A DNA stretch of 64,000 nucleotides from Euryarchaeota archaeon UBA103 (GTDB lineage: Archaea > Thermoplasmatota > Poseidoniia > Poseidoniales > Thalassarchaeaceae), in the NCBI GenBank assembly GCA_002506825.1, contig DAYH01000023.1:5593-69592 (forward strand), written 5' to 3'. Positions 34,709 through 43,580 of the stretch are shown piece after piece; the first letter of the stretch is position 1; the number at the start of each line of letters is the position of its first letter. The translations under genes and the position numbers were made by a program. The notes under the pieces were generated by a model that saw only the letters and a list, made by a program, of their open reading frames with translations, was not told the DNA's origin and did no database searches.

Positions 34709-35305
34709 TCAGACCTGACTTGAGAGAAGCTTGGGTAACAACAAAACTATTCCCACGAGCGACATTAGAAGTACAAATCTCAACAGTGACTCATTATTTG
34801 TTTCACCCAGAACTTCTTCATCTCCTCCCACTGGTAGTTCTTGACCTGAAATATGATTATCCTCTGAGAAAGAAACAAAGAAATAACTCTCCTGCATTGA
34901 TCCGTTTACGTCGATTTGATGCTTCATTGAGACATTAGAGGGCAACAATCCGTTAGAGGGGTCTAACAGAATCAGTGATGTAACTTCACAAGATGGGTCG
35001 ATCTTCTCACCGGACTCATCGAGATCGCAGTTACTACTCAACCATGGCGTGACGATATCGTCAACCCCATCGAAAATATCATCGCCTTCAACATCCACTA
35101 AAATCCTGTGAGTGACATTTTCCCTTCCATCTACATTGTAGAAGAACAAAGAGTCGGAAGACACAAGAATTCCGGGGGAAACCCCATTGGGGGTAATGCG
35201 GTCCTCCTTCAGTAGAATTGTGTATTCTTTGGGCTCATGAGCCGATACTGGAGCTATGAGCATTAGAGAAACTAATGCCATAGCCAACCCCACCTTTGTG
35301 TTCAT
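34709..35305 (-). CDS. small secreted beta-sandwich (cupredoxin-like pattern) protein with C-terminal TM anchor; paralog of 39112..39660
   Basis: I prefer the ATG at 35305 (MNTKVGLAMALVSLMLIAPVSA/HEP). The pattern ITPNGVSPGILVSSDSLFFYNVDGRENVTH resembles the cupredoxin form F.P..i.v..Gd.v.f.N.d...H. It has a conserved Cys pair and a C-terminal helix (LLRFVLLMSLVGIVLLL). Confidence 0.6.
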   Translation of the reverse strand: MNTKVGLAMALVSLMLIAPVSAHEPKEYTILLKEDRITPNGVSPGILVSSDSLFFYNVDGRENVTHRILVDVEGDDIFDGVDDIVTPWLSSNCDLDESGEKIDPSCEVTSLILLDPSNGLLPSNVSMKHQIDVNGSMQESYFFVSFSEDNHISGQELPVGGDEEVLGETNNESLLRFVLLMSLVGIVLLLPKLLSSQV

Positions 35306-35358
35306 GTCCCTGCGTGAGGGGGCGATGGCTTCAACATGACCTACACCCTCCGGATAAT

Positions 35359-37092
35359 ATGAGCTCAGAAAGGGCGGTTGCCGCAATCGGTTTGGCGGTT
35401 TGTATCATAGCCGCAATTTTAGCTACGGCAATGCTCTCAGATAATGAGTCAACAGATTCCAGTGGAGGTGAGGAGTTGATCGATCCCTTGATCCAAACCG
35501 AGGGGCACGATCATAGGAACGCTAGCCAGCATGTGATGTTCACAGAAAACATTAGGCCAGTTAGCTACAATCCCCTAACTGCCCCTGGAAATGCGGAGAT
35601 TCAAGTCGCGGACTCTCCCGATGGCAAGAGGTATGCCTACATTGCGGGATGGTCTGAGTTGCACATCGTGGATGTCACTAACCCTGAGAATACTACGGTA
35701 ACAGGAGTGTACTACGACCCCAATACCCAAGTCCTAGATGTAAAGTACTTGCAATACAATGCTAGGGAGTACGTTATAGTTCAGAATCAATTAGTAGACC
35801 CCGGGGCCGCAGATCCAAATGTTGGTTCATGGGAAGATCCTGCTCAAGTTACAGTTACATTGGTTGATGTGACGGACAAAAGCGATCCTAGTTGGGTCGA
35901 TTCGTGGTATGATGCTGATCACCCTAGCGGACCTCATAACCTCTACACCCACATGATTGACAATGAATGGTATATATTCGTAGCCAATCCAGATTACGAG
36001 CAATGTGATGTTGGACAGGGTGACGCTTGCGGCGGAATCACAATCGCTCACCTAAACTTCGCAGGGTATGGAGACCTTCCCAGAATTGTGAAGGTAGGGG
36101 AAGCCGAAGTGAGCTGGGAGTCTACCCTAGGGGGCTGGATATACATCCATGACATGACTGTTCAGACATGGCCGGGCGAGGACCCAAATGATCCTCGTTT
36201 CGATAGAACTTTCGTGTATGGTGCATATTGGGAAGCAGGACTGAGGATTTTCGACGTTTCTGATGTTCCACACCCTGGAAATGACCTTGCTGAGTATCTG
36301 GCGATAGCGGCCGCCTGCAGGGGGTCTTTCGGCACTCAACTGGGTTGCAACTGGAGAGCTCCTGAAGTTGGCCAGTGGATGGAGTTCGAAGACTTTGATG
36401 GTGATGGGGAGATTGACTGTGGCTGTACAGGAAATGAAAATGGTGGCAGAGCCTCATATATTCACTATGCTGAGCCCATAGACGATATGGTCGATGCTAG
36501 TCATTTGGGTTACCCTGCCGGTAAGCGCCACCTCACAATAGTCGCAACCGAGGTACTCAGCACCACAGTGGGAACAGGTATGAGCTACCTACTGGACACC
36601 ACTGGCTATGAAATGAATAACGGAAATTTCAGATTCCTCCCCGAGCTTATCCACGGGTGGGAAATACCATTTGCTATGGATCACCATATTCCCGAGGGAG
36701 AAGAATGGCTCCTATTTAGCCCCCATAATGCAGATACTCAGATTTTCCAAACTGGACTACCAGGGCTTCCTGACAATAGTTTCGGTGGTGCTTGGGATGG
36801 CAGAATTTACCTGAGTAGCTATCACGCAGGACTGTGGGTCATAGATATTGAAACTCTGATGTTTGAAGGATTACAAAGCAGTAACAAGACGGAGGCTCAT
36901 ACGTCTTCGACTATCGGTTATCACCTTCCCCATGGGGCTGACGGGACTCCTCTGGATAGCTCATTCTACGACTTCGGATGGACTCCTTTCCTATGGGCGG
37001 CAGAATACCATGATGGTTACACATACCTCTCGTGCATCACAAGTGGATTGTACATTGTCCAATTGGACATTGACGCGCCCTATGGAACCTAG
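35359..37092 (+). CDS. LVIVD-repeat beta-propeller protein, N-terminal TM anchor (paralog 1)
   Basis: The ATG at 35359 gives MSSERAVAAIGLAVCIIAAILATAML. LVIVD-type repeats are present (KRYAYIAGWSELHIVDVTNPENTTVTGVYY, AYWEAGLRIFDVSD, SYHAGLWVIDIE, SGLYIVQLD). It is His-rich. Confidence 0.75.
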   Translation: MSSERAVAAIGLAVCIIAAILATAMLSDNESTDSSGGEELIDPLIQTEGHDHRNASQHVMFTENIRPVSYNPLTAPGNAEIQVADSPDGKRYAYIAGWSELHIVDVTNPENTTVTGVYYDPNTQVLDVKYLQYNAREYVIVQNQLVDPGAADPNVGSWEDPAQVTVTLVDVTDKSDPSWVDSWYDADHPSGPHNLYTHMIDNEWYIFVANPDYEQCDVGQGDACGGITIAHLNFAGYGDLPRIVKVGEAEVSWESTLGGWIYIHDMTVQTWPGEDPNDPRFDRTFVYGAYWEAGLRIFDVSDVPHPGNDLAEYLAIAAACRGSFGTQLGCNWRAPEVGQWMEFEDFDGDGEIDCGCTGNENGGRASYIHYAEPIDDMVDASHLGYPAGKRHLTIVATEVLSTTVGTGMSYLLDTTGYEMNNGNFRFLPELIHGWEIPFAMDHHIPEGEEWLLFSPHNADTQIFQTGLPGLPDNSFGGAWDGRIYLSSYHAGLWVIDIETLMFEGLQSSNKTEAHTSSTIGYHLPHGADGTPLDSSFYDFGWTPFLWAAEYHDGYTYLSCITSGLYIVQLDIDAPYGT

Positions 37093-37159
37093 ACTTCGGC
37101 CCCTATGGGGCCGGGCGTAAAGGGGGGAATTTGATAGGGTAGGTTTGTCCCGGCGTGGC

Positions 37160-39115
37160 ATGAACCTACGCCCGGTATGGCTGCTCACCGCTCTGATGAT
37201 ACTAGCACCTCTTTCTGGGTGCCTATCATTTTCCAATGATTCAGGGAGATCAGGCGATGGCAGTATGGATTGGATAGATCCTGTGACAGAAATAGAGGAT
37301 GACAATCACTCGCACAATGATTTGCTTGCACACCGTCTTGCTACTCCAAATGCAAAATTAATTGACTATCACAACCTAAATTGTGATGGAAACGTAAAGC
37401 CCCCAGCGGACTTGGACAACGTGGCAGGTAGGCCTTGTTTTGATGAATTCAAAAATGTGGGACCGACCCCCGGAGATAGCTCGGAGATAGCAATTGAAGG
37501 TAATTTTCTCGATGACTGTGAGATATATGGAGATGGTACTGGGGGGTGTTTCGCCTACGTCTCTTCATACAACCAATTTGAGATTCTAGACATTAGTAAG
37601 CCCAACGAAATTAGACTATTATCTACATACTACGCAGAAATTGCCAGAATGATCGATATCAAAGTCACGTCCGATAACAACTGGGTGCTAGTGAATCATG
37701 AATTGACTAATTCTGAGTTAGACCCGATTCCCAATGATGATGATGCCAATAGCGGTGCAAACCGACTAGATCTAATCTATGTTGGTGACAAGACTAGCCC
37801 CATAAAGGTCGCAGAATGGGATAATCCTCCAGCTGGTTTTCACAATCAAGATCTGCACGTATACTGTGATTGGGAACCTGCAAACCCCACCGCTTTATGG
37901 CAAGATGACTGTCACCTATTCCTGTTCGGCGCTGATCCCTATCCTGAAATGGTAGAAGGATCAAGTGGGACTTTCTACAAGGGAACACAGGTCTTCTACG
38001 CTCTTATTGATTTCGAGGGATTGAACCCGACAAACAACGAAGAACAACAAAATGCAAGCAGGGAAATAATCCGATGGGGCGGGTACACTCCTGAGCCGCA
38101 GACAACCTGTGGAGGATCCATATTCAACCATGACAATGTATTCTTCATCCACCCAATAACCAAGCAGAAAATGTTGGCAGTATCTTACTGGGGAGCTGGG
38201 TTGAGATTCGTTGATGTATCCGAGCCACCTCAAATTGCTGATCCTCTGGGGATTTCTTGGCCTCCTGAAACCGGACGATGGCTGGGTTGCTCCACCGATG
38301 ACTCGGGATGGTATGGTCCAGAGGGAGGGGGGCATGCCAACATGTCACCTGAAGTTTGGCTAGATGCGAATGATGGAAACGACAACATACATTATGCGGT
38401 CCCCCAGGATAATTTGATTTGCTCGGGAATTAGCGAGTATGACCCAGTGGAAACATGGCCTGATAAATGCGGAATAGGACCCTCCGATGCCACATATGGC
38501 GAGAATTGGAGGCATTACACTTACATCGCACCGGAATATGGATCTAACGCCAATCACACTGGCTACATATGGACAATTGATACCACGGACCCGGCTCAGC
38601 CTTTCCTAGTTTCCAAGTGGAAGCTACCTGGTGAAAGCACTCTTCCTGATGGAACCTCGCATCCTCACCATTACATCCCTGGAGGATATATTTTCAGTCC
38701 CCATAATGGGGATACTGGGTTGAATGGGCACGTTTACTGGACCCATTACCATGCCGGAGTTTGGATAACTGATCATGGCCACATTTGGGACGAGTTAGTT
38801 TGGGAAAATGGATATCCAGAACCGGAAAGAGGATTTCAGGCAATATCAGAGTTAGCACCATCACACACACTTGGATACTACCTACCGGCAGGACCAGATT
38901 GGATTGATGACCCTGCTAATACATTGGGTTATGACATGGCTGATTGCTGGGCTTCTTGTATGATACCTTTCGATTGGGGTCTACAATATGACCCTCGTGG
39001 TTTCGTCTTTATTTCCGAGATGGTCTCAGGAGTATATGTTGTTCAGTTCGATGAGGATTATGATTCAAGATATGACTATCCACCTCTATGGAAGGCGGAG
39101 GCTAGTGACGAATGA
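37160..39115 (+). CDS. LVIVD-repeat beta-propeller lipoprotein (paralog 2)
   Basis: The ATG at 37160 gives a signal plus lipobox (LLTALMILAPLSGC). Repeats include CFAYVSSYNQFEILDISKPNEIRLLSTYY, SYWGAGLRFVDVSE, HYHAGVWITD and SGVYVVQFD. It is colinear with 35359..37092. Confidence 0.75.
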   Translation: MNLRPVWLLTALMILAPLSGCLSFSNDSGRSGDGSMDWIDPVTEIEDDNHSHNDLLAHRLATPNAKLIDYHNLNCDGNVKPPADLDNVAGRPCFDEFKNVGPTPGDSSEIAIEGNFLDDCEIYGDGTGGCFAYVSSYNQFEILDISKPNEIRLLSTYYAEIARMIDIKVTSDNNWVLVNHELTNSELDPIPNDDDANSGANRLDLIYVGDKTSPIKVAEWDNPPAGFHNQDLHVYCDWEPANPTALWQDDCHLFLFGADPYPEMVEGSSGTFYKGTQVFYALIDFEGLNPTNNEEQQNASREIIRWGGYTPEPQTTCGGSIFNHDNVFFIHPITKQKMLAVSYWGAGLRFVDVSEPPQIADPLGISWPPETGRWLGCSTDDSGWYGPEGGGHANMSPEVWLDANDGNDNIHYAVPQDNLICSGISEYDPVETWPDKCGIGPSDATYGENWRHYTYIAPEYGSNANHTGYIWTIDTTDPAQPFLVSKWKLPGESTLPDGTSHPHHYIPGGYIFSPHNGDTGLNGHVYWTHYHAGVWITDHGHIWDELVWENGYPEPERGFQAISELAPSHTLGYYLPAGPDWIDDPANTLGYDMADCWASCMIPFDWGLQYDPRGFVFISEMVSGVYVVQFDEDYDSRYDYPPLWKAEASDE

Positions 39116-39660
39116 GATTATCTCTGAAGAGTCAATTATCAATAGCAGTAGTTTTTCTCCTTCTCATCCCCGTCGCTTCGGCACATGGAGCAAACTCATT
39201 CTCTTTCATCATGAGGAATGGATCCCTGCAACCAGAATCAGCTGAAATCGTACAGAATGATACGCTGATATTTTACAATGTGGTCGAATATGAAAGGAGT
39301 CTGGAATTAGACAAGGACGAAGATGGAGTGATGGACTACCAGTGTACTGCTTCCGGCTTTAACTCGACCAATACAGACGATGAATGTAGACTTTGGCTCG
39401 ATCCAATTAATTGGACTGCCGGAGAATATGAGATAGACATTATCTCCAATGGAAGCCTGTGGAAAACTCTGATTTTCACACTGATAGAAGATGTACATAA
39501 TGAATCTGGTCCGCCCTCTGGGTACTCCTTTGGAGACACTCCGGAAGATCAGATTCAGTCCGGGGAAGGAGTTTCTGTATCAAATGAGTTTTTACTAATT
39601 GGTGCCTTAGCGGTTGTTGGAGTTGTATTGCTTACCAGAGGGAGGGGGAAAAATGAGTAG
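39112..39660 (+). CDS. small secreted beta-sandwich (cupredoxin-like pattern) protein with C-terminal TM anchor; paralog of 34709..35305
   Basis: Its signal is LSIAVVFLLLIPVASA/HGA. The pattern LQPESAEIVQNDTLIFYNV follows, with a Cys pair (YQC...DDEC) and a C-terminal helix (LLIGALAVVGVVLL). It shares an ATGA overlap with the upstream gene. Confidence 0.6.
   Translation: MRLSLKSQLSIAVVFLLLIPVASAHGANSFSFIMRNGSLQPESAEIVQNDTLIFYNVVEYERSLELDKDEDGVMDYQCTASGFNSTNTDDECRLWLDPINWTAGEYEIDIISNGSLWKTLIFTLIEDVHNESGPPSGYSFGDTPEDQIQSGEGVSVSNEFLLIGALAVVGVVLLTRGRGKNE
39641..39648 (+). promoter_or_regulatory. Shine-Dalgarno-like element for SCO1 paralog a
   Basis: GGAGGGGG lies 4 nt upstream of the ATG at 39653, inside the 3' end of the preceding gene. 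Confidence 0.3.
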
Positions 39661-40381
39661 GATATCGGGAATTCTTCTAGCGGTGATCATAATATCGTCG
39701 GGATGTATGGGAAGTGCCGATGAGGATGTCTTCTATGGAGAAGACATTTCTCCCCCAGTTCCGGTAACTGACTTTATACTGACAGACGAAAATGGAGATT
39801 TCTTCTCACTCTCTGGGTATGAAGGAAAGGTAGTCGTAGTAACCTTCCTATTCACTAGATGTCCGGACATCTGCCCAATTGTCAGCGCAAATCTAGACTA
39901 TCTCTCTGTCATGCTTGGGGATGACTATGGGACTGAGGTTGAGATTCTTACTATTACAGTAGATCCATGGACTGACAATAGCTCAGTCTTACATCAGTAT
40001 CGTGAACAGCGAGGACTTCATTGGCCCCATCTAACTGGTTCTGTGGAAGATCTTGAAGACATATGGCTGGAATTTGATGTTGGGCTACAAACCTATGATA
40101 CCGATACTGACGGCGATGGGGTTTCAGACGGCTTCGATACCTGTTTGGAAACTCCTGAAGGAGAGGAAGTCGATAATAACGGGTGTGGTTTAGAGACCCA
40201 ACAACAAGAAGAAGATGGCGTTACTGTCAAGCATCATCCTCTGGATTACTGGGTTGATCACACCACTGGTACGATAATTCTTGACAAGGAGCTTAGGCAG
40301 CGAGTTTGGTGGGGAGATACAGATTGGAATGTCGAGCTTGCGATAGAAGATATCAAGATTCTAATGGAAGAGGAGTCTTGA
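39653..40381 (+). CDS. SCO1/SenC-family copper chaperone / thiol-disulfide oxidoreductase lipoprotein with TSP3-like insertion
   Basis: It has a lipobox (IIISSGCMG). The thioredoxin-fold motif is KVVVVTFLFTRCPDICP (CxxxC at about 39860-39874). ITVDP and a distal His (WVDHTTGTIILD) are present. An insertion reads DTDTDGDGVSDGFDTCLETPEGEEVDNNGC. Confidence 0.8.
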   Translation: MSRISGILLAVIIISSGCMGSADEDVFYGEDISPPVPVTDFILTDENGDFFSLSGYEGKVVVVTFLFTRCPDICPIVSANLDYLSVMLGDDYGTEVEILTITVDPWTDNSSVLHQYREQRGLHWPHLTGSVEDLEDIWLEFDVGLQTYDTDTDGDGVSDGFDTCLETPEGEEVDNNGCGLETQQQEEDGVTVKHHPLDYWVDHTTGTIILDKELRQRVWWGDTDWNVELAIEDIKILMEEES

Positions 40382-40382
40382 A

Positions 40383-41483
40383 ATGAGCTTCTTAAGAGTG
40401 GCGGTAGTATCCTTGATATTACTTTCCTCGGGATGTCTTGGACAAGGAGAAGGAGACCTTGAGTTTCTCGGAATAGAATACAGGGACCCTCCTGAAGCGC
40501 CAAATTTTGTTCTTTTCGACCAGAACGGAGATGTCTTTGAATTGATCGAACATGAAGGCAAGGTGATTGTTGTTGCATTCGTCTACACCGCATGTCCCGA
40601 CATATGCCTGATAATTTCTTCTAACCTAGATTACGTAAACAAGAATCTTGGAGACAAATCAGATGATGTGGTGATAATTTCAGTGACAATTGACCCGGCC
40701 AGAGACACCATCTCTCATCTATCTGAGTGGACTGATAGTAGGGGATATGAATGGTATCATCTGACAGGTCCGGTATCGACACTTCAGCAGACATACCGTT
40801 CATGGAATGTCATAATCGATAACGAACACATATCTGCAAGTCAGCCTCCTGAAAGTGAGCTTAACAGACTGGTGTTGATGTACCCAGATAATTCTAGCTC
40901 AATTCTGGAACAGAAAGGATTCGGGAAGAACGGTTCTGATTTCATATCAGAAACAATGTCCGGATCAAACATCAGTAGCGATATTGGAAATGGACCGAAT
41001 AGTTCGGGAACAATTGGCGAATGGACGTCTAACGAAGACTGGTCCTGGATTCTTCACTACTGGGACTCGGACAATGAAAGCTGGGTCACTTCTCAAGAGC
41101 CAAGCTCAACCATCAACATGGGTATTGGGACTCACCTCGCATGGATGCCAAGCAATGCTAACATCAGTATGGCCCCTCCGGGGGAGGACTGTGATGGACA
41201 TGGATGGATTATGGGTTCTGGGAGCAGTGCTCACTGTATGTGTGATGACGGATATGAAAGATCTGATGCGGACTGGCTATCATGCTTCATCGAGGGATCT
41301 ATCAGTGGTAACGACACTGGCTCGGAAGACCCACATGATGAGTCCCTTGGGGAGTATGAAGTTGGCCACTCCACCACCACATTCATTGTAGGGAAAGAGA
41401 TGAGGAAGAGGGTTGCTTACTCTGGAATATTTTGGGATGCTGATAACTTCTTGCAAGATGTAATTACCCTCGCTGATGAGTGA
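40383..41483 (+). CDS. SCO1/SenC-family lipoprotein with about 190-aa inserted domain
   Basis: It has a lipobox (LLSSGCLG). The motif KVIVVAFVYTACPDICL carries CxxxC at about 40593-40607. ISVTIDP and a distal His (EVGHSTTTFIVGKE) are present. The inserted segment between HLTG and the distal His includes CDGHGWIMGSGSSAHCMCDDGY...LSC. Confidence 0.8.
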   Translation: MSFLRVAVVSLILLSSGCLGQGEGDLEFLGIEYRDPPEAPNFVLFDQNGDVFELIEHEGKVIVVAFVYTACPDICLIISSNLDYVNKNLGDKSDDVVIISVTIDPARDTISHLSEWTDSRGYEWYHLTGPVSTLQQTYRSWNVIIDNEHISASQPPESELNRLVLMYPDNSSSILEQKGFGKNGSDFISETMSGSNISSDIGNGPNSSGTIGEWTSNEDWSWILHYWDSDNESWVTSQEPSSTINMGIGTHLAWMPSNANISMAPPGEDCDGHGWIMGSGSSAHCMCDDGYERSDADWLSCFIEGSISGNDTGSEDPHDESLGEYEVGHSTTTFIVGKEMRKRVAYSGIFWDADNFLQDVITLADE

Positions 41484-41531: not shown

Positions 41532-43580
41532 ATGCTATTTCATTCACTTGGGAACATGGCAGAAGATAATGGGATGGCGAGGTCGATATTTCTCTCGGCT
41601 CTGATGGTTACTAGCGTGATGACTGGCTTACTGTTCTTCGGTATTGAAGATGAGGGTTTGAACGACTCGCCAACTATTGACTCTGATGTCCCTGACACTA
41701 TGTTGATTGGCGAGATTGAAACGGTGAATATAACAATCTCAGATGAGGAGATGGGGGGCCTGTCTGTCTTGATTACTCTGAACGGAGAGCAGGTCATGGA
41801 CCCTCTTGACGCTAATGGGGTTGTAACTTTGGATATTTCATCACTCGAAGTAGGCAGTCATGCACTTCAGGTAGTGGCCACCGATAGCCTTGGACAGGAT
41901 TCAACATGGACCAAAGTTTTCTCCATTAATTACCCCGAAGAGAGTGGGACGATAATCACTCTCTCTGCGACTGAGCTTGAGATTGTAAGAGGTGGAATAG
42001 CTCCAATTAATGGGCAGGTCCTTCATGACTCTATCGAAACTTGCTCCCTAAGGTGGTCTACTGGAGATGTCTCCGAGTCGAGCCTGGGGCTTCCAATAGG
42101 CGAAGATGGCAGTTTCGAGCTAGAACTATCCAACATACAGGATAATACTACGTTGTCTCTATCGTCGGTATGCGGGGTTTGGACTGAAAGTTCATTCTTA
42201 GTAACAACTACCATTACTGTAATCGAGGGAGTCACAGAAGGTTGTACTGATCCAAGTGCCAGTAACTATGACGAGGGCGCAGAAGAGGATGATGGATCCT
42301 GCGAATATGAAAATGAGCCTGTTCCTGAATCGGGTTGTACTGATTCAAGTGCCAGTAACTATGACGAAGGCGCAGAAGAGGATGATGGATCCTGCGAATA
42401 TGAAAATGAGCCTGTGGATAATGGAACTGGATCTCAGTCATGGTGGGAGGAAGTACTTCTTTGCGATTCTACCGAACAAGTAGAGCCCGTGGATGATTAC
42501 AATACCACGGAATCTGATAATCATCTTTGCCAATTGCGTTTTGAGATTGGAGAGACTGAGGTTGTAATCAGTTCTAATGGGATTCCTAATCATGATTTGG
42601 AGTCAGGGCCGGGTTGCTGTACCAGTGAGCAAGACCTGGAATGGAGGATTCCCCTTGTCCCCACCAACCAGACTGGGTGCGATCCTTCTATCTCTACAGA
42701 TGGATGCACGATGGCACCAGAGAGAGATGCTGTCGCCTTCGCTGTAAATGGAGTTCCCATCTTCGGACCTGAAGACGGCCCCGGAGGGGATGCAGTTGCA
42801 GGACATGAGGGGGAATATGAGGAAGATAGGCAACATATCTGGCTAGGGATATGTCACGGTCATTCAGGACCAGGTGGCGCTTATCATTACCACGCAGATG
42901 CAAATTGCGCACACTGGCACCCCGATGAAGATAGCAATCAAACATGGAGGGACTACAGTATTGACTCTTCTAGGTCCTTGTCTGAGCATTCACCTATTGT
43001 TGGATTCGCTTTTGATGGCTATCCCATATATGGATTCGTAGGCTGGGACGATGACGAGAACATATCTGAAATGAAATCATCATACCGTCTAAAGGAGGGG
43101 GAAACTGGTTACAATGGGATTGATGATTACGAGTATGTAGCAGGACTCGGCGATCTAGACTCTTGTAATGGGCACTTTGGACCCACTCCAGATTACCCCG
43201 AAGGAGTATACCACTATCATACCACATGGGAGAATGGAGAGGGAGAGATTGGATTCCCCTATTTCATCAACTGCTACAGGGGCGAAGTATCCCTAGGAAG
43301 CGAGAATGGAGGAGGGGATGATGGGGTCGATTGCTCGGGACATGGAGATACATGGGGGCCGGGCATAGGCCCTCCTCCAGAAGGATGCGGAGGTGGCCCC
43401 CAGGGCCAGTCTTCCGACTTTTCTACAGCATTCGGAGCCATACATCGAATTGCCCCCCCTAGTGGAGGCATGTTAGCATTGATGCTACTGGGAGTTGTTT
43501 TTGTCAGAGTATTGGCATTTGCCCCAGTTTCTCCAAGTCGGGCTGGTATAATTGCCTTATATCGTCAAGCTCAAGTATGA
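41532..43580 (+). CDS. membrane-anchored Ig-like-repeat protein with C-terminal YHYH domain
   Basis: An N-terminal TM helix is followed by Ig-like segments and a duplicated Cys-bounded acidic linker. Two half-domains follow, ICHGHSGPGGAYHYHADANCAHWH (YHYH at about 42882-42893) and CNGHFGPTPDYPEGVYHYHTT..FPYFINCYRG (about 43209-43220). It ends in a C-terminal hydrophobic helix. The start could also be 41556 or 41574. Confidence 0.7.
   Translation: MLFHSLGNMAEDNGMARSIFLSALMVTSVMTGLLFFGIEDEGLNDSPTIDSDVPDTMLIGEIETVNITISDEEMGGLSVLITLNGEQVMDPLDANGVVTLDISSLEVGSHALQVVATDSLGQDSTWTKVFSINYPEESGTIITLSATELEIVRGGIAPINGQVLHDSIETCSLRWSTGDVSESSLGLPIGEDGSFELELSNIQDNTTLSLSSVCGVWTESSFLVTTTITVIEGVTEGCTDPSASNYDEGAEEDDGSCEYENEPVPESGCTDSSASNYDEGAEEDDGSCEYENEPVDNGTGSQSWWEEVLLCDSTEQVEPVDDYNTTESDNHLCQLRFEIGETEVVISSNGIPNHDLESGPGCCTSEQDLEWRIPLVPTNQTGCDPSISTDGCTMAPERDAVAFAVNGVPIFGPEDGPGGDAVAGHEGEYEEDRQHIWLGICHGHSGPGGAYHYHADANCAHWHPDEDSNQTWRDYSIDSSRSLSEHSPIVGFAFDGYPIYGFVGWDDDENISEMKSSYRLKEGETGYNGIDDYEYVAGLGDLDSCNGHFGPTPDYPEGVYHYHTTWENGEGEIGFPYFINCYRGEVSLGSENGGGDDGVDCSGHGDTWGPGIGPPPEGCGGGPQGQSSDFSTAFGAIHRIAPPSGGMLALMLLGVVFVRVLAFAPVSPSRAGIIALYRQAQV
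42240..42415 (+). repeat. near-perfect 93-bp tandem duplication inside the YHYH gene
   Basis: Copy 1 runs from about 42240 and copy 2 from about 42333. Both encode GCTD(P/S)SASNYDEGAEEDDGSCEYENEPV, and only a few nucleotide differences were seen by eye. Confidence 0.85.

Follow-up and report, generated by a model that had tools for sequence, protein, structure and literature searches.

What do two small secreted proteins do in a marine archaeon that encodes them on either side of a pair of β-propeller genes, and could they carry copper at an exposed N-terminal histidine? The two genes, small A (product P0001; 39112-39660, forward strand) and small B (product P0002; 34709-35305, reverse strand), lie in a window of 64,000 nt, the whole stretch of DNA that was analysed, to which all coordinates refer unless another contig is named. 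The DNA comes from Euryarchaeota archaeon UBA103, a Marine Group II (MGII) archaeon whose genome assembly is 1.31 Mb in size and 83% complete. An earlier note on this DNA had described the products as paralogous β-sandwich proteins in which predicted signal cleavage exposes a histidine, and had suggested that they bind or hand over copper by a histidine brace for the adjacent LVIVD and SCO1 genes. Both open reading frames are present at the positions given above, and in both translations a histidine directly follows an AxA-type signal peptidase site, as that note had said. We are confident that the two proteins represent a family of secreted, membrane-tethered cupredoxins that lack a type-1 copper site and are restricted to the class Poseidoniia.

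Small A and small B share a common layout: a basic n-region, a hydrophobic core, a proline, A-S-A or V-S-A directly before a histidine, and a domain of ~115 residues. Downstream of the domain, both proteins have an acidic low-complexity linker, a transmembrane (TM) helix and a short tail. The N-terminal region of small A reads ...LLLIPVASA/HGANSF and that of small B ...LIAPVSA/HEPKEY (the slash marks the predicted cleavage); in the latter, V-S-A precedes His23 and a proline is found at -4. The two sequences are 28% identical (BLASTP, E = 2e-8), which makes them paralogs, and a hidden Markov model of the family found these two genes and no others in the 1.31-Mb genome. The shared pattern (I/L)xP...D.L.FYNV reported earlier is real, with a gap of three residues required in small A relative to small B. 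The same holds for the cysteine pair, said to be 12-13 residues apart: 13 residues lie between Cys78 and Cys92 in small A, and 12 between Cys93 and Cys106 in small B. The C-terminal TM helix is seen as a helix (residues 158-177) in the small A model described below and as LLRFVLLMSLVGIVLLLPKL in small B. The whole of small A contains only two histidines, His25 and His129, and only two cysteines, Cys78 and Cys92; the only methionines in the mature protein are at positions 34 and 74. Small A also contains six N-x-S/T sequons (N36, N49, N84, N100, N113, N130) and small B four, a pattern that suggests a glycosylated surface protein. Because Asp50 is more conserved than Asn49, we regard the aspartate rather than the sequon as the conserved feature at positions 49-51.

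The structure of small A was modelled with AlphaFold2 from an input alignment of 16 sequences. The core of the model (residues 29-125) has a predicted local distance difference test (pLDDT) value of ~90 and consists of nine strand segments: 29-35, 38-40, 43-47, 51-56, 62-66, 76-80, 91-95, 104-112 and 115-125. Apart from the TM helix, residues 1-18 in the signal peptide are helical. A Foldseek comparison with the PDB, of which the best 50 matches were considered, returned cupredoxins throughout (E = 1.5e-4 to 8e-4), including plastocyanin, pseudoazurin, two-domain laccase, NirK and the cup domain of EfeO. The template-modelling score TMt was 0.70 for the Bacillus anthracis Cupredoxin_1 protein (4hcf) and 0.71 for Brucella FtrB. 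Judged by this model, small A is a genuine but very divergent cupredoxin with a Greek-key fold. The β-sandwich of the earlier note is thus borne out, although as a divergent cupredoxin fold and not as a generic sandwich; of the folds that the note had named for a Foldseek comparison (CopC, lytic polysaccharide monooxygenase [LPMO] and cupredoxin), cupredoxins filled the best 50 matches and no LPMO was among them.

In sequence searches, neither small A nor small B has a match in Pfam or NCBIfam, with PF00127 and PF13473 both failing to score above cut-off; for these two proteins the scan extended to E ≤ 0.1. When 28 family members were scanned against Pfam down to E ≤ 10, seven gave sub-threshold matches to PF13473 (Cupredoxin_1), the best scoring 18.3 bits against a cut-off of 27. 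The family profile found nothing meaningful among PDB sequences (best E = 0.76). In cupredoxins, successive strands run in opposite directions, and the 'northern' loops carry the type-1 ligands. In small A, the type-1 ligand loop is reduced to a two-residue turn, Asn113-Gly114, between the last two strands. Since the Cys-His-Met hairpin has shrunk to this turn and there are just two histidines and two cysteines overall, we consider the type-1 site of small A to have been deleted. The type-1 Cys/His/Met triad is absent from small A, in agreement with the earlier note, and small B keeps the strand-4 histidine alone. His66 and His129 of small B may form a second, northern site that is absent from small A.

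The family has a narrow distribution. A word-indexed search gave 33 relatives. When 1.84 billion representatives were searched exhaustively with HMMER, no more than 65 clusters at 50% identity were recovered. With each GTDB species represented by one genome, a scan gave 54 loci, all of them in Poseidoniales/MGII. Whole-genome searches detected the family in 121 of 151 Poseidoniales genomes (48 of 58 when restricted to high-quality genomes), representing 21 of 22 genera. Beyond Poseidoniales it was found in two genomes of the same class that are Marine Group III (MGIII)-like, so that the family is confined to Poseidoniia (MGII/MGIII). One match, in G074 (E = 3.9e-5), is counted as doubtful because it spans just the N-terminal 55 positions of the model. 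Several proteins of 700-1300 residues (P0085, P0088 and others) were rejected as spurious relatives: they consist of cadherin/VCBS-like repeats and match only in a stretch resembling NYHGADSFSF.

Conservation was counted over 71 family members with less than 80% identity that cover both ends of the domain. Cys78, Cys92 and Pro41 are present in all 71, and the two cysteines of small A, located on neighbouring strands, probably form a disulphide bond. The -3/-1 rule of signal peptidase fits across the family, with alanine at -1 in 70/71 members and valine or alanine at -3 in 67/71. Histidine is found at +1 (His25 of small A, His1 of the predicted mature protein) in 67 of the 71 members, which places it among the seven most conserved of ~120 positions; the alignment of orthologs and paralogs that had been proposed as a check therefore finds His1 near-invariant. 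Its neighbours vary (Gly, Asp or Glu at +2; Ala, Pro or Gln at +3), and because +1 is held while +2 and +3 change, the conservation of His1 goes beyond chance. Ranking, together with His1, just behind both cysteines and Pro41 are His129 (70/71) and Asp127 (67/71) of the D-x-H motif; Asn56 and Asp50 are each conserved in 66 members. A DxDxDG-like loop is moderately conserved (Asp67 in 59, Asp71 in 56 and Gly72 in 54 of the 71).

Four members lack His1: the metagenomic proteins P0075, P0077 and P0055 have aspartate in its place, and P0076 has nothing at +1. All four also lack the canonical D-x-H motif (table 66/1/0/4; Fisher p = 5e-6, uncorrected for relatedness), and this joint loss occurred in at least two independent events. 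In P0075 (locus L074), P0077 and P0055, long His/Asp-rich tails such as GHDDDGHSHSHGEE lie between the domain and the TM helix; these tails may be an alternative metal-binding solution of this sub-clade on the same scaffold. We think it likely that His1 is exposed and functionally essential. A metagenomic protein of 274 residues, P0045, has two tandem copies of the domain ahead of the TM helix, the second of which is therefore necessarily without an N-terminal histidine.

Both small genes belong to a conserved cluster (Table 1). The order small B (reverse strand), LVIVD1, LVIVD2, small A, SCO1a, SCO1b, YHYH is identical in 58 of 58 loci fetched. The ATG of small A overlaps the stop codon of LVIVD2 (ATGA). 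A distant small-B-type member, P0079, is still divergent from an LVIVD1 ortholog. In the sister order, the cluster is rearranged in both MGIII-like genomes (L081, at G028:C22, 9354-12898; L082, at G193:C19, 2515-8624); in L081, a small-B-type gene and an adjoining SCO1 gene lie on one strand and are divergent from LVIVD1. The association with SCO1 and LVIVD genes noticed earlier is thus general, the small genes being tied to SCO1 throughout the class. SCO1a and SCO1b match the SCO1/SenC model with 84-85 bits, and the CxxxC motif is intact in both. The ATG codons of small B (35305, reverse strand) and LVIVD1 (35359) point away from each other with only 53 bp between them (35306-35358), and inspection of this interval revealed no obvious TATA box; longer, TTG-initiated reading frames of the two genes would overlap.

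Table 1. Position of features in the small A/small B locus.
Feature	Position (nt)	Strand	Description
small B	34709-35305	-	198-residue paralog, ATG at 35305; signal peptide residues 1-22
small B TM helix, residues ~174 to 193	within 34709-35305	-	LLRFVLLMSLVGIVLLLPKL
small B Asp149-Asn-His151	34853-34861	-	D-x-H counterpart
small B His129 in SMxHQ	34919-34921	-	strand 7; kept in core MGII small B
small B His66 (ENVTHRI)	35108-35110	-	invariant in small B lineage; classic cupredoxin strand-4 ligand position
small B His23 codon	35237-35239	-	predicted mature N-terminal His, from sequence
LVIVD1	35359-37092	+	membrane-anchored (TM helix) seven-bladed β-propeller, divergent from small B
LVIVD2	37145-39115	+	paralogous propeller; LSGC lipobox-like motif
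small A	39112-39660	+	182-residue type-I membrane protein: signal peptide, cupredoxin-like ectodomain, acidic linker, TM helix
small A signal peptide, residues 1-24	39112-39183	+	basic n-region, hydrophobic core, Pro at -5, A-S-A at -3 to -1; predicted cleavage
small A His25 codon	39184-39186	+	predicted mature N-terminal His (putative brace residue 1); His in 67/71
small A cupredoxin-like ectodomain, residues 25-141	39184-39534	+	model, Foldseek, weak PF13473
small A DxDxDG-like loop, residues 67-75 (LDKDEDGVMD)	39310-39336	+	D-x-D-x-D-G-x-x-D, like calcium-binding DxDxDG loops
small A Cys78...Cys92 pair	39343-39387	+	neighbouring strands (positions from model); 71/71
small A Asp127-Val-His129 (D-x-H)	39490-39498	+	just past last strand; candidate second His and carboxylate ligand
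small A TM helix, residues 158-177	39583-39642	+	followed by basic tail RGRGKNE; sequence and model
SCO1a lipoprotein	39653-40381	+	CPDIC motif; start overlaps small A stop by 8 nt
SCO1b lipoprotein	40383-41483	+	CPDIC motif
YHYH-domain (PF14240) protein	41532-43580	+	closes conserved cluster

The propellers LVIVD1 and LVIVD2 are 24% identical by BLASTP (32% in the alignment) and share ten invariant histidines (H50, H52, H58, H193, H264, H369, H391, H442, H456 and H489 in LVIVD1 numbering). The LVIVD1 model, with a predicted template-modelling score of 0.78, is a seven-bladed propeller. Among PDB structures it is most similar to the Mn-dependent Sphingobium phosphotriesterase 5hrm, with generic propellers ranking next. 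Identification of LVIVD1 as NosZ or as methanethiol oxidase was rejected, as neither is among its best 50 Foldseek matches. A search of LVIVD1 against PDB sequences was empty, and its homolog search returned nothing but 'hypothetical' MGII orthologs at 76% identity or higher. The YHYH protein has a predicted three-histidine site of zinc type. A literature search found no paper connecting LVIVD, YHYH and SCO1. Taken together with their shared histidines, LVIVD1 and LVIVD2 look like an uncharacterised core metalloenzyme pair.

The copper genes of the genome comprise COX1, COX2 with the CuA motif CTEYCGDAHSVM and a separate, true type-1 copper domain. Neither CopC nor PCuAC was found in the genome, and CopC is present in 41 of 201 Thermoplasmatota genomes and in none of the sampled Poseidoniales. 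COX1 lies outside the window, on contig C15 (6827-9148, reverse strand), as a reading frame of 773 codons with an N-terminal extracytoplasmic extension of ~200 residues in which a GCNCHG motif is found; its neighbours are COX2, whose CuA motif is normal, and a COX3-like protein of 369 residues. Halocyanin is known to be highly transcribed by MGII (PMC9723583).

How does the family compare with known extracytoplasmic copper proteins? The set of putative ligands is that of CopC/PcoC (PF04234), a periplasmic Cu(II) chaperone that has been called cupredoxin-like; in CopC a signal peptide exposes His1, as is predicted for small A and small B, and a D-x-H motif is located towards the C-terminus of a small Greek-key sandwich. 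All 12 archaeal CopC domains that we compared read A/H...D(G/T)H, and the CopC ligand set of His1 and Asp-x-His is matched in small A by H25, D127 and H129. CopC occurs as a soluble protein or as a fusion with CopD, in contrast to small A and small B, which carry their own C-terminal TM helix and adjoin SCO1. YcnI of Bacillus subtilis (DUF1775, PF07987), from a copper-homeostasis operon, has the layout predicted for the family, in the order signal peptide, N-terminal histidine (the copper site of YcnI), β-sandwich and C-terminal TM helix (PMC8424229). The brace of YcnI contains a single histidine (His1 together with Glu, a Trp lying nearby; PMC8424229); in contrast, our family has a second near-invariant histidine, and its partners are SCO1, LVIVD and YHYH instead of CopCD. 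No match to PF07987 was found among the 28 members scanned. PCuAC (PF04314) is a small copper chaperone working with SCO1 in CuA assembly, a role similar to the one proposed for the small proteins, and its versions in PmoF have a histidine brace at the N-terminus (PMC8424229). PF04314 matched none of the 28 members, and the H(M)x10Mx21HxM motif is absent from small A. Nor did any of the 28 match an LPMO family (AA9/AA10 and related). The small A/small B family is not a member of CopC, YcnI, PCuAC or LPMO.

Among the closest structures are Cupredoxin_1 (PF13473; 4hcf/4hcg), the EfeO cup domain (7wgu) and FtrB (8vuk), with TMt values of 0.70-0.71, in which the type-1 triad is also missing; PF13473 also gave the one sequence signal of the family, a weak one. 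These are iron-uptake proteins, however, without an N-terminal histidine brace, an invariant cysteine pair or a TM anchor. For FtrB, a cupredoxin without the type-1 triad, a C-terminal Asp/His pair has been proposed to ligate Cu(II) (PMC11966278). Type-1 blue copper proteins (plastocyanin, pseudoazurin, halocyanin), which head the Foldseek matches, share the fold of small A, but only they have His-Cys-His-Met ligands. A 2025 'signal-strapping' survey of proteins with histidine at +1 distinguished four classes, DUF4198, DUF6702, Ang-1 and Ang-2 (PMC12537917), none of which includes the small A/small B family.

We propose, with moderate confidence, that small A and small B are Cu(II) histidine-brace carriers that feed SCO1. 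As type-I membrane proteins they would be exposed at the outer surface of the archaeal membrane, signal peptidase I cutting after the alanine at -1 to leave histidine as residue 1. Applying the strand alternation rule to the strand order of the model places His25, Asp50 (loop 48-50), the 67-75 loop, the 96-103 loop (Asp97-Pro98) and Asp127/His129 at the 'southern' pole of the domain. Thus, with the northern type-1 site deleted, the conserved residues His1, Asp50, Asp67/Asp71, Asp97, Asp127 and His129 would be gathered at the southern end, where the N-terminus is predicted to meet the C-terminal end of the last strand. There, the amino group and imidazole of His1, together with His129 and Asp127, could form a CopC-like Cu(II) histidine-brace site. 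The flexible acidic linker and the TM helix would hold the domains near the membrane, where scarce Cu(II) would be captured and then handed, either as such or once reduced, to the co-translated lipoproteins SCO1a and SCO1b. SCO1 would in turn supply extracytoplasmic clients: cytochrome oxidase at its CuA site, halocyanin, and perhaps LVIVD and YHYH, which are rich in histidine. Small A and small B would then fill the role held in bacteria by CopC, PCuAC and YcnI.

Several observations weigh against this proposal. All sequence-level tests of the histidine brace suggested in the earlier note were favourable, but homology to CopC, PCuAC, YcnI or LPMO was not detectable: for CopC, PF04234 matched none of the 28 members, and hhalign assigned a probability of 0.1-0.2% when 54 family members were compared with the 12 archaeal CopC domains. 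The D-x-H motif lies before the last strand in CopC but after it in small A. In the two MGIII members the Asp-His spacing deviates (PDVGAGH and SPH). The -3/-1 rule is the sole basis for placing the signal cleavage before His1, residues 21-25 of the small A model have a pLDDT below 50, and strand topology alone brings His1 close to D-x-H. The metal, the site geometry and the direction of transfer are likewise deduced. The closest structure to LVIVD1 is a binuclear-Mn phosphotriesterase and no copper enzyme. SCO1 handles Cu(I)/Cu(II) through its cysteines, with no known reductant or partner interface.

Three other explanations are possible but unlikely. In the first, small A and small B would serve an as yet undescribed extracellular metalloenzyme system, core to MGII/III, as its dedicated subunits for metal delivery or redox chemistry, and their wrong-pole brace would be a new, possibly catalytic copper centre. 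The system itself would then consist of the two near-invariant propellers with their ten common histidines and the YHYH protein.

In the second, the site formed by His1 and D-x-H would bind Ni, Zn, Co or Fe for general metal capture or storage, and the SCO1 proteins would be thiol-disulphide oxidoreductases; we consider this improbable. Which metal an N-terminal histidine site binds (Ni, Co or Cu) does differ between families (DUF4198, DUF6702, Ang; PMC12537917), the variants without His1 have generic His/Asp-rich tails, the LVIVD1 fold is nearest to a Mn enzyme, and the predicted site of YHYH is of zinc type. Copper is favoured, on the other hand, by the scores of both SCO1 paralogs on the SCO1/SenC model and their intact CxxxC motifs, by the identity of His1 and Asp-x-His with the Cu(II) ligand set of CopC, and by a genome that has clear copper clients and in which no other periplasmic-type copper chaperone was found.

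The third explanation, to which we give similarly little credence, is that small A and small B are non-metal partners, anchors or assembly subunits, one for each LVIVD protein, with the His and Asp residues serving an interface or a structural Ca2+ site. The cluster does come in pairs (two small proteins, two propellers, two SCO1 proteins), translation of small A is coupled to that of LVIVD2, and the divergent arrangement of small B and LVIVD1 persists even in a distant clade. The moderately conserved D-x-D-x-D-G loop would suit a Ca2+ site, and across MGII the small proteins evolve far faster (36-93% identity) than the LVIVD propellers (77-97%). What this explanation does not account for is the location of the histidine at exactly +1, its joint loss with D-x-H, and the gain of His-rich tails. 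Moreover, the propellers already own anchors, the TM helix of LVIVD1 and the LSGC lipobox-like motif of LVIVD2.

More doubtful still is a redox-active brace copper, which would make the small proteins electron carriers to the propellers or YHYH, or else LPMO-like oxidases, rather than chaperones. The cupredoxin fold of small A would be compatible with such a role, as would the retention of His66 at the classic strand-4 ligand position in small B and the oxygen chemistry that histidine braces support in LPMOs; FtrB, a Cup-II cupredoxin with C-terminal Asp/His ligands, is a proposed oxidase (PMC11966278). Yet no LPMO or other oxidase family matched any of the 28 members at E ≤ 10 in Pfam, the known non-LPMO brace proteins CopC, PmoF and YcnI show no catalysis (PMC8424229), and the predicted site would lie beside a flexible linker and not on a flat substrate face. 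Finally, the hydrophobic N-terminus might be an uncleaved signal anchor, with the histidine internal and conserved for another reason, so that no brace could form; although the specificity of the MGII signal peptidase is unstudied, we consider this very unlikely given the textbook c-region, the nearby proline and small residues at -3/-1 in 70/71 members, and because an anchor, together with the C-terminal TM helix, would leave a domain of 115 residues fixed to the membrane at its two ends.

The proposal that small A and small B are copper carriers bears on the ecology of their hosts. In the surface ocean, few archaea are as abundant as those of MGII, which, to our knowledge, have never been cultured. 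Copper in the surface ocean is scarce and tightly complexed, and MGII cells depend on a CuA/CuB oxidase and halocyanin. If the proposal is true, the family-wide and readily expressed domain of ~115 residues, with its predicted His1/Asp-x-His site, would be the missing extracytoplasmic copper link in organisms in which CopC and PCuAC were not found. The few known histidine-brace proteins would then be joined by one on a new scaffold, namely a cupredoxin with its site at the opposite pole. The two small proteins provide an experimental handle on a class-wide cluster of seven genes that includes the uncharacterised LVIVD propellers and YHYH.

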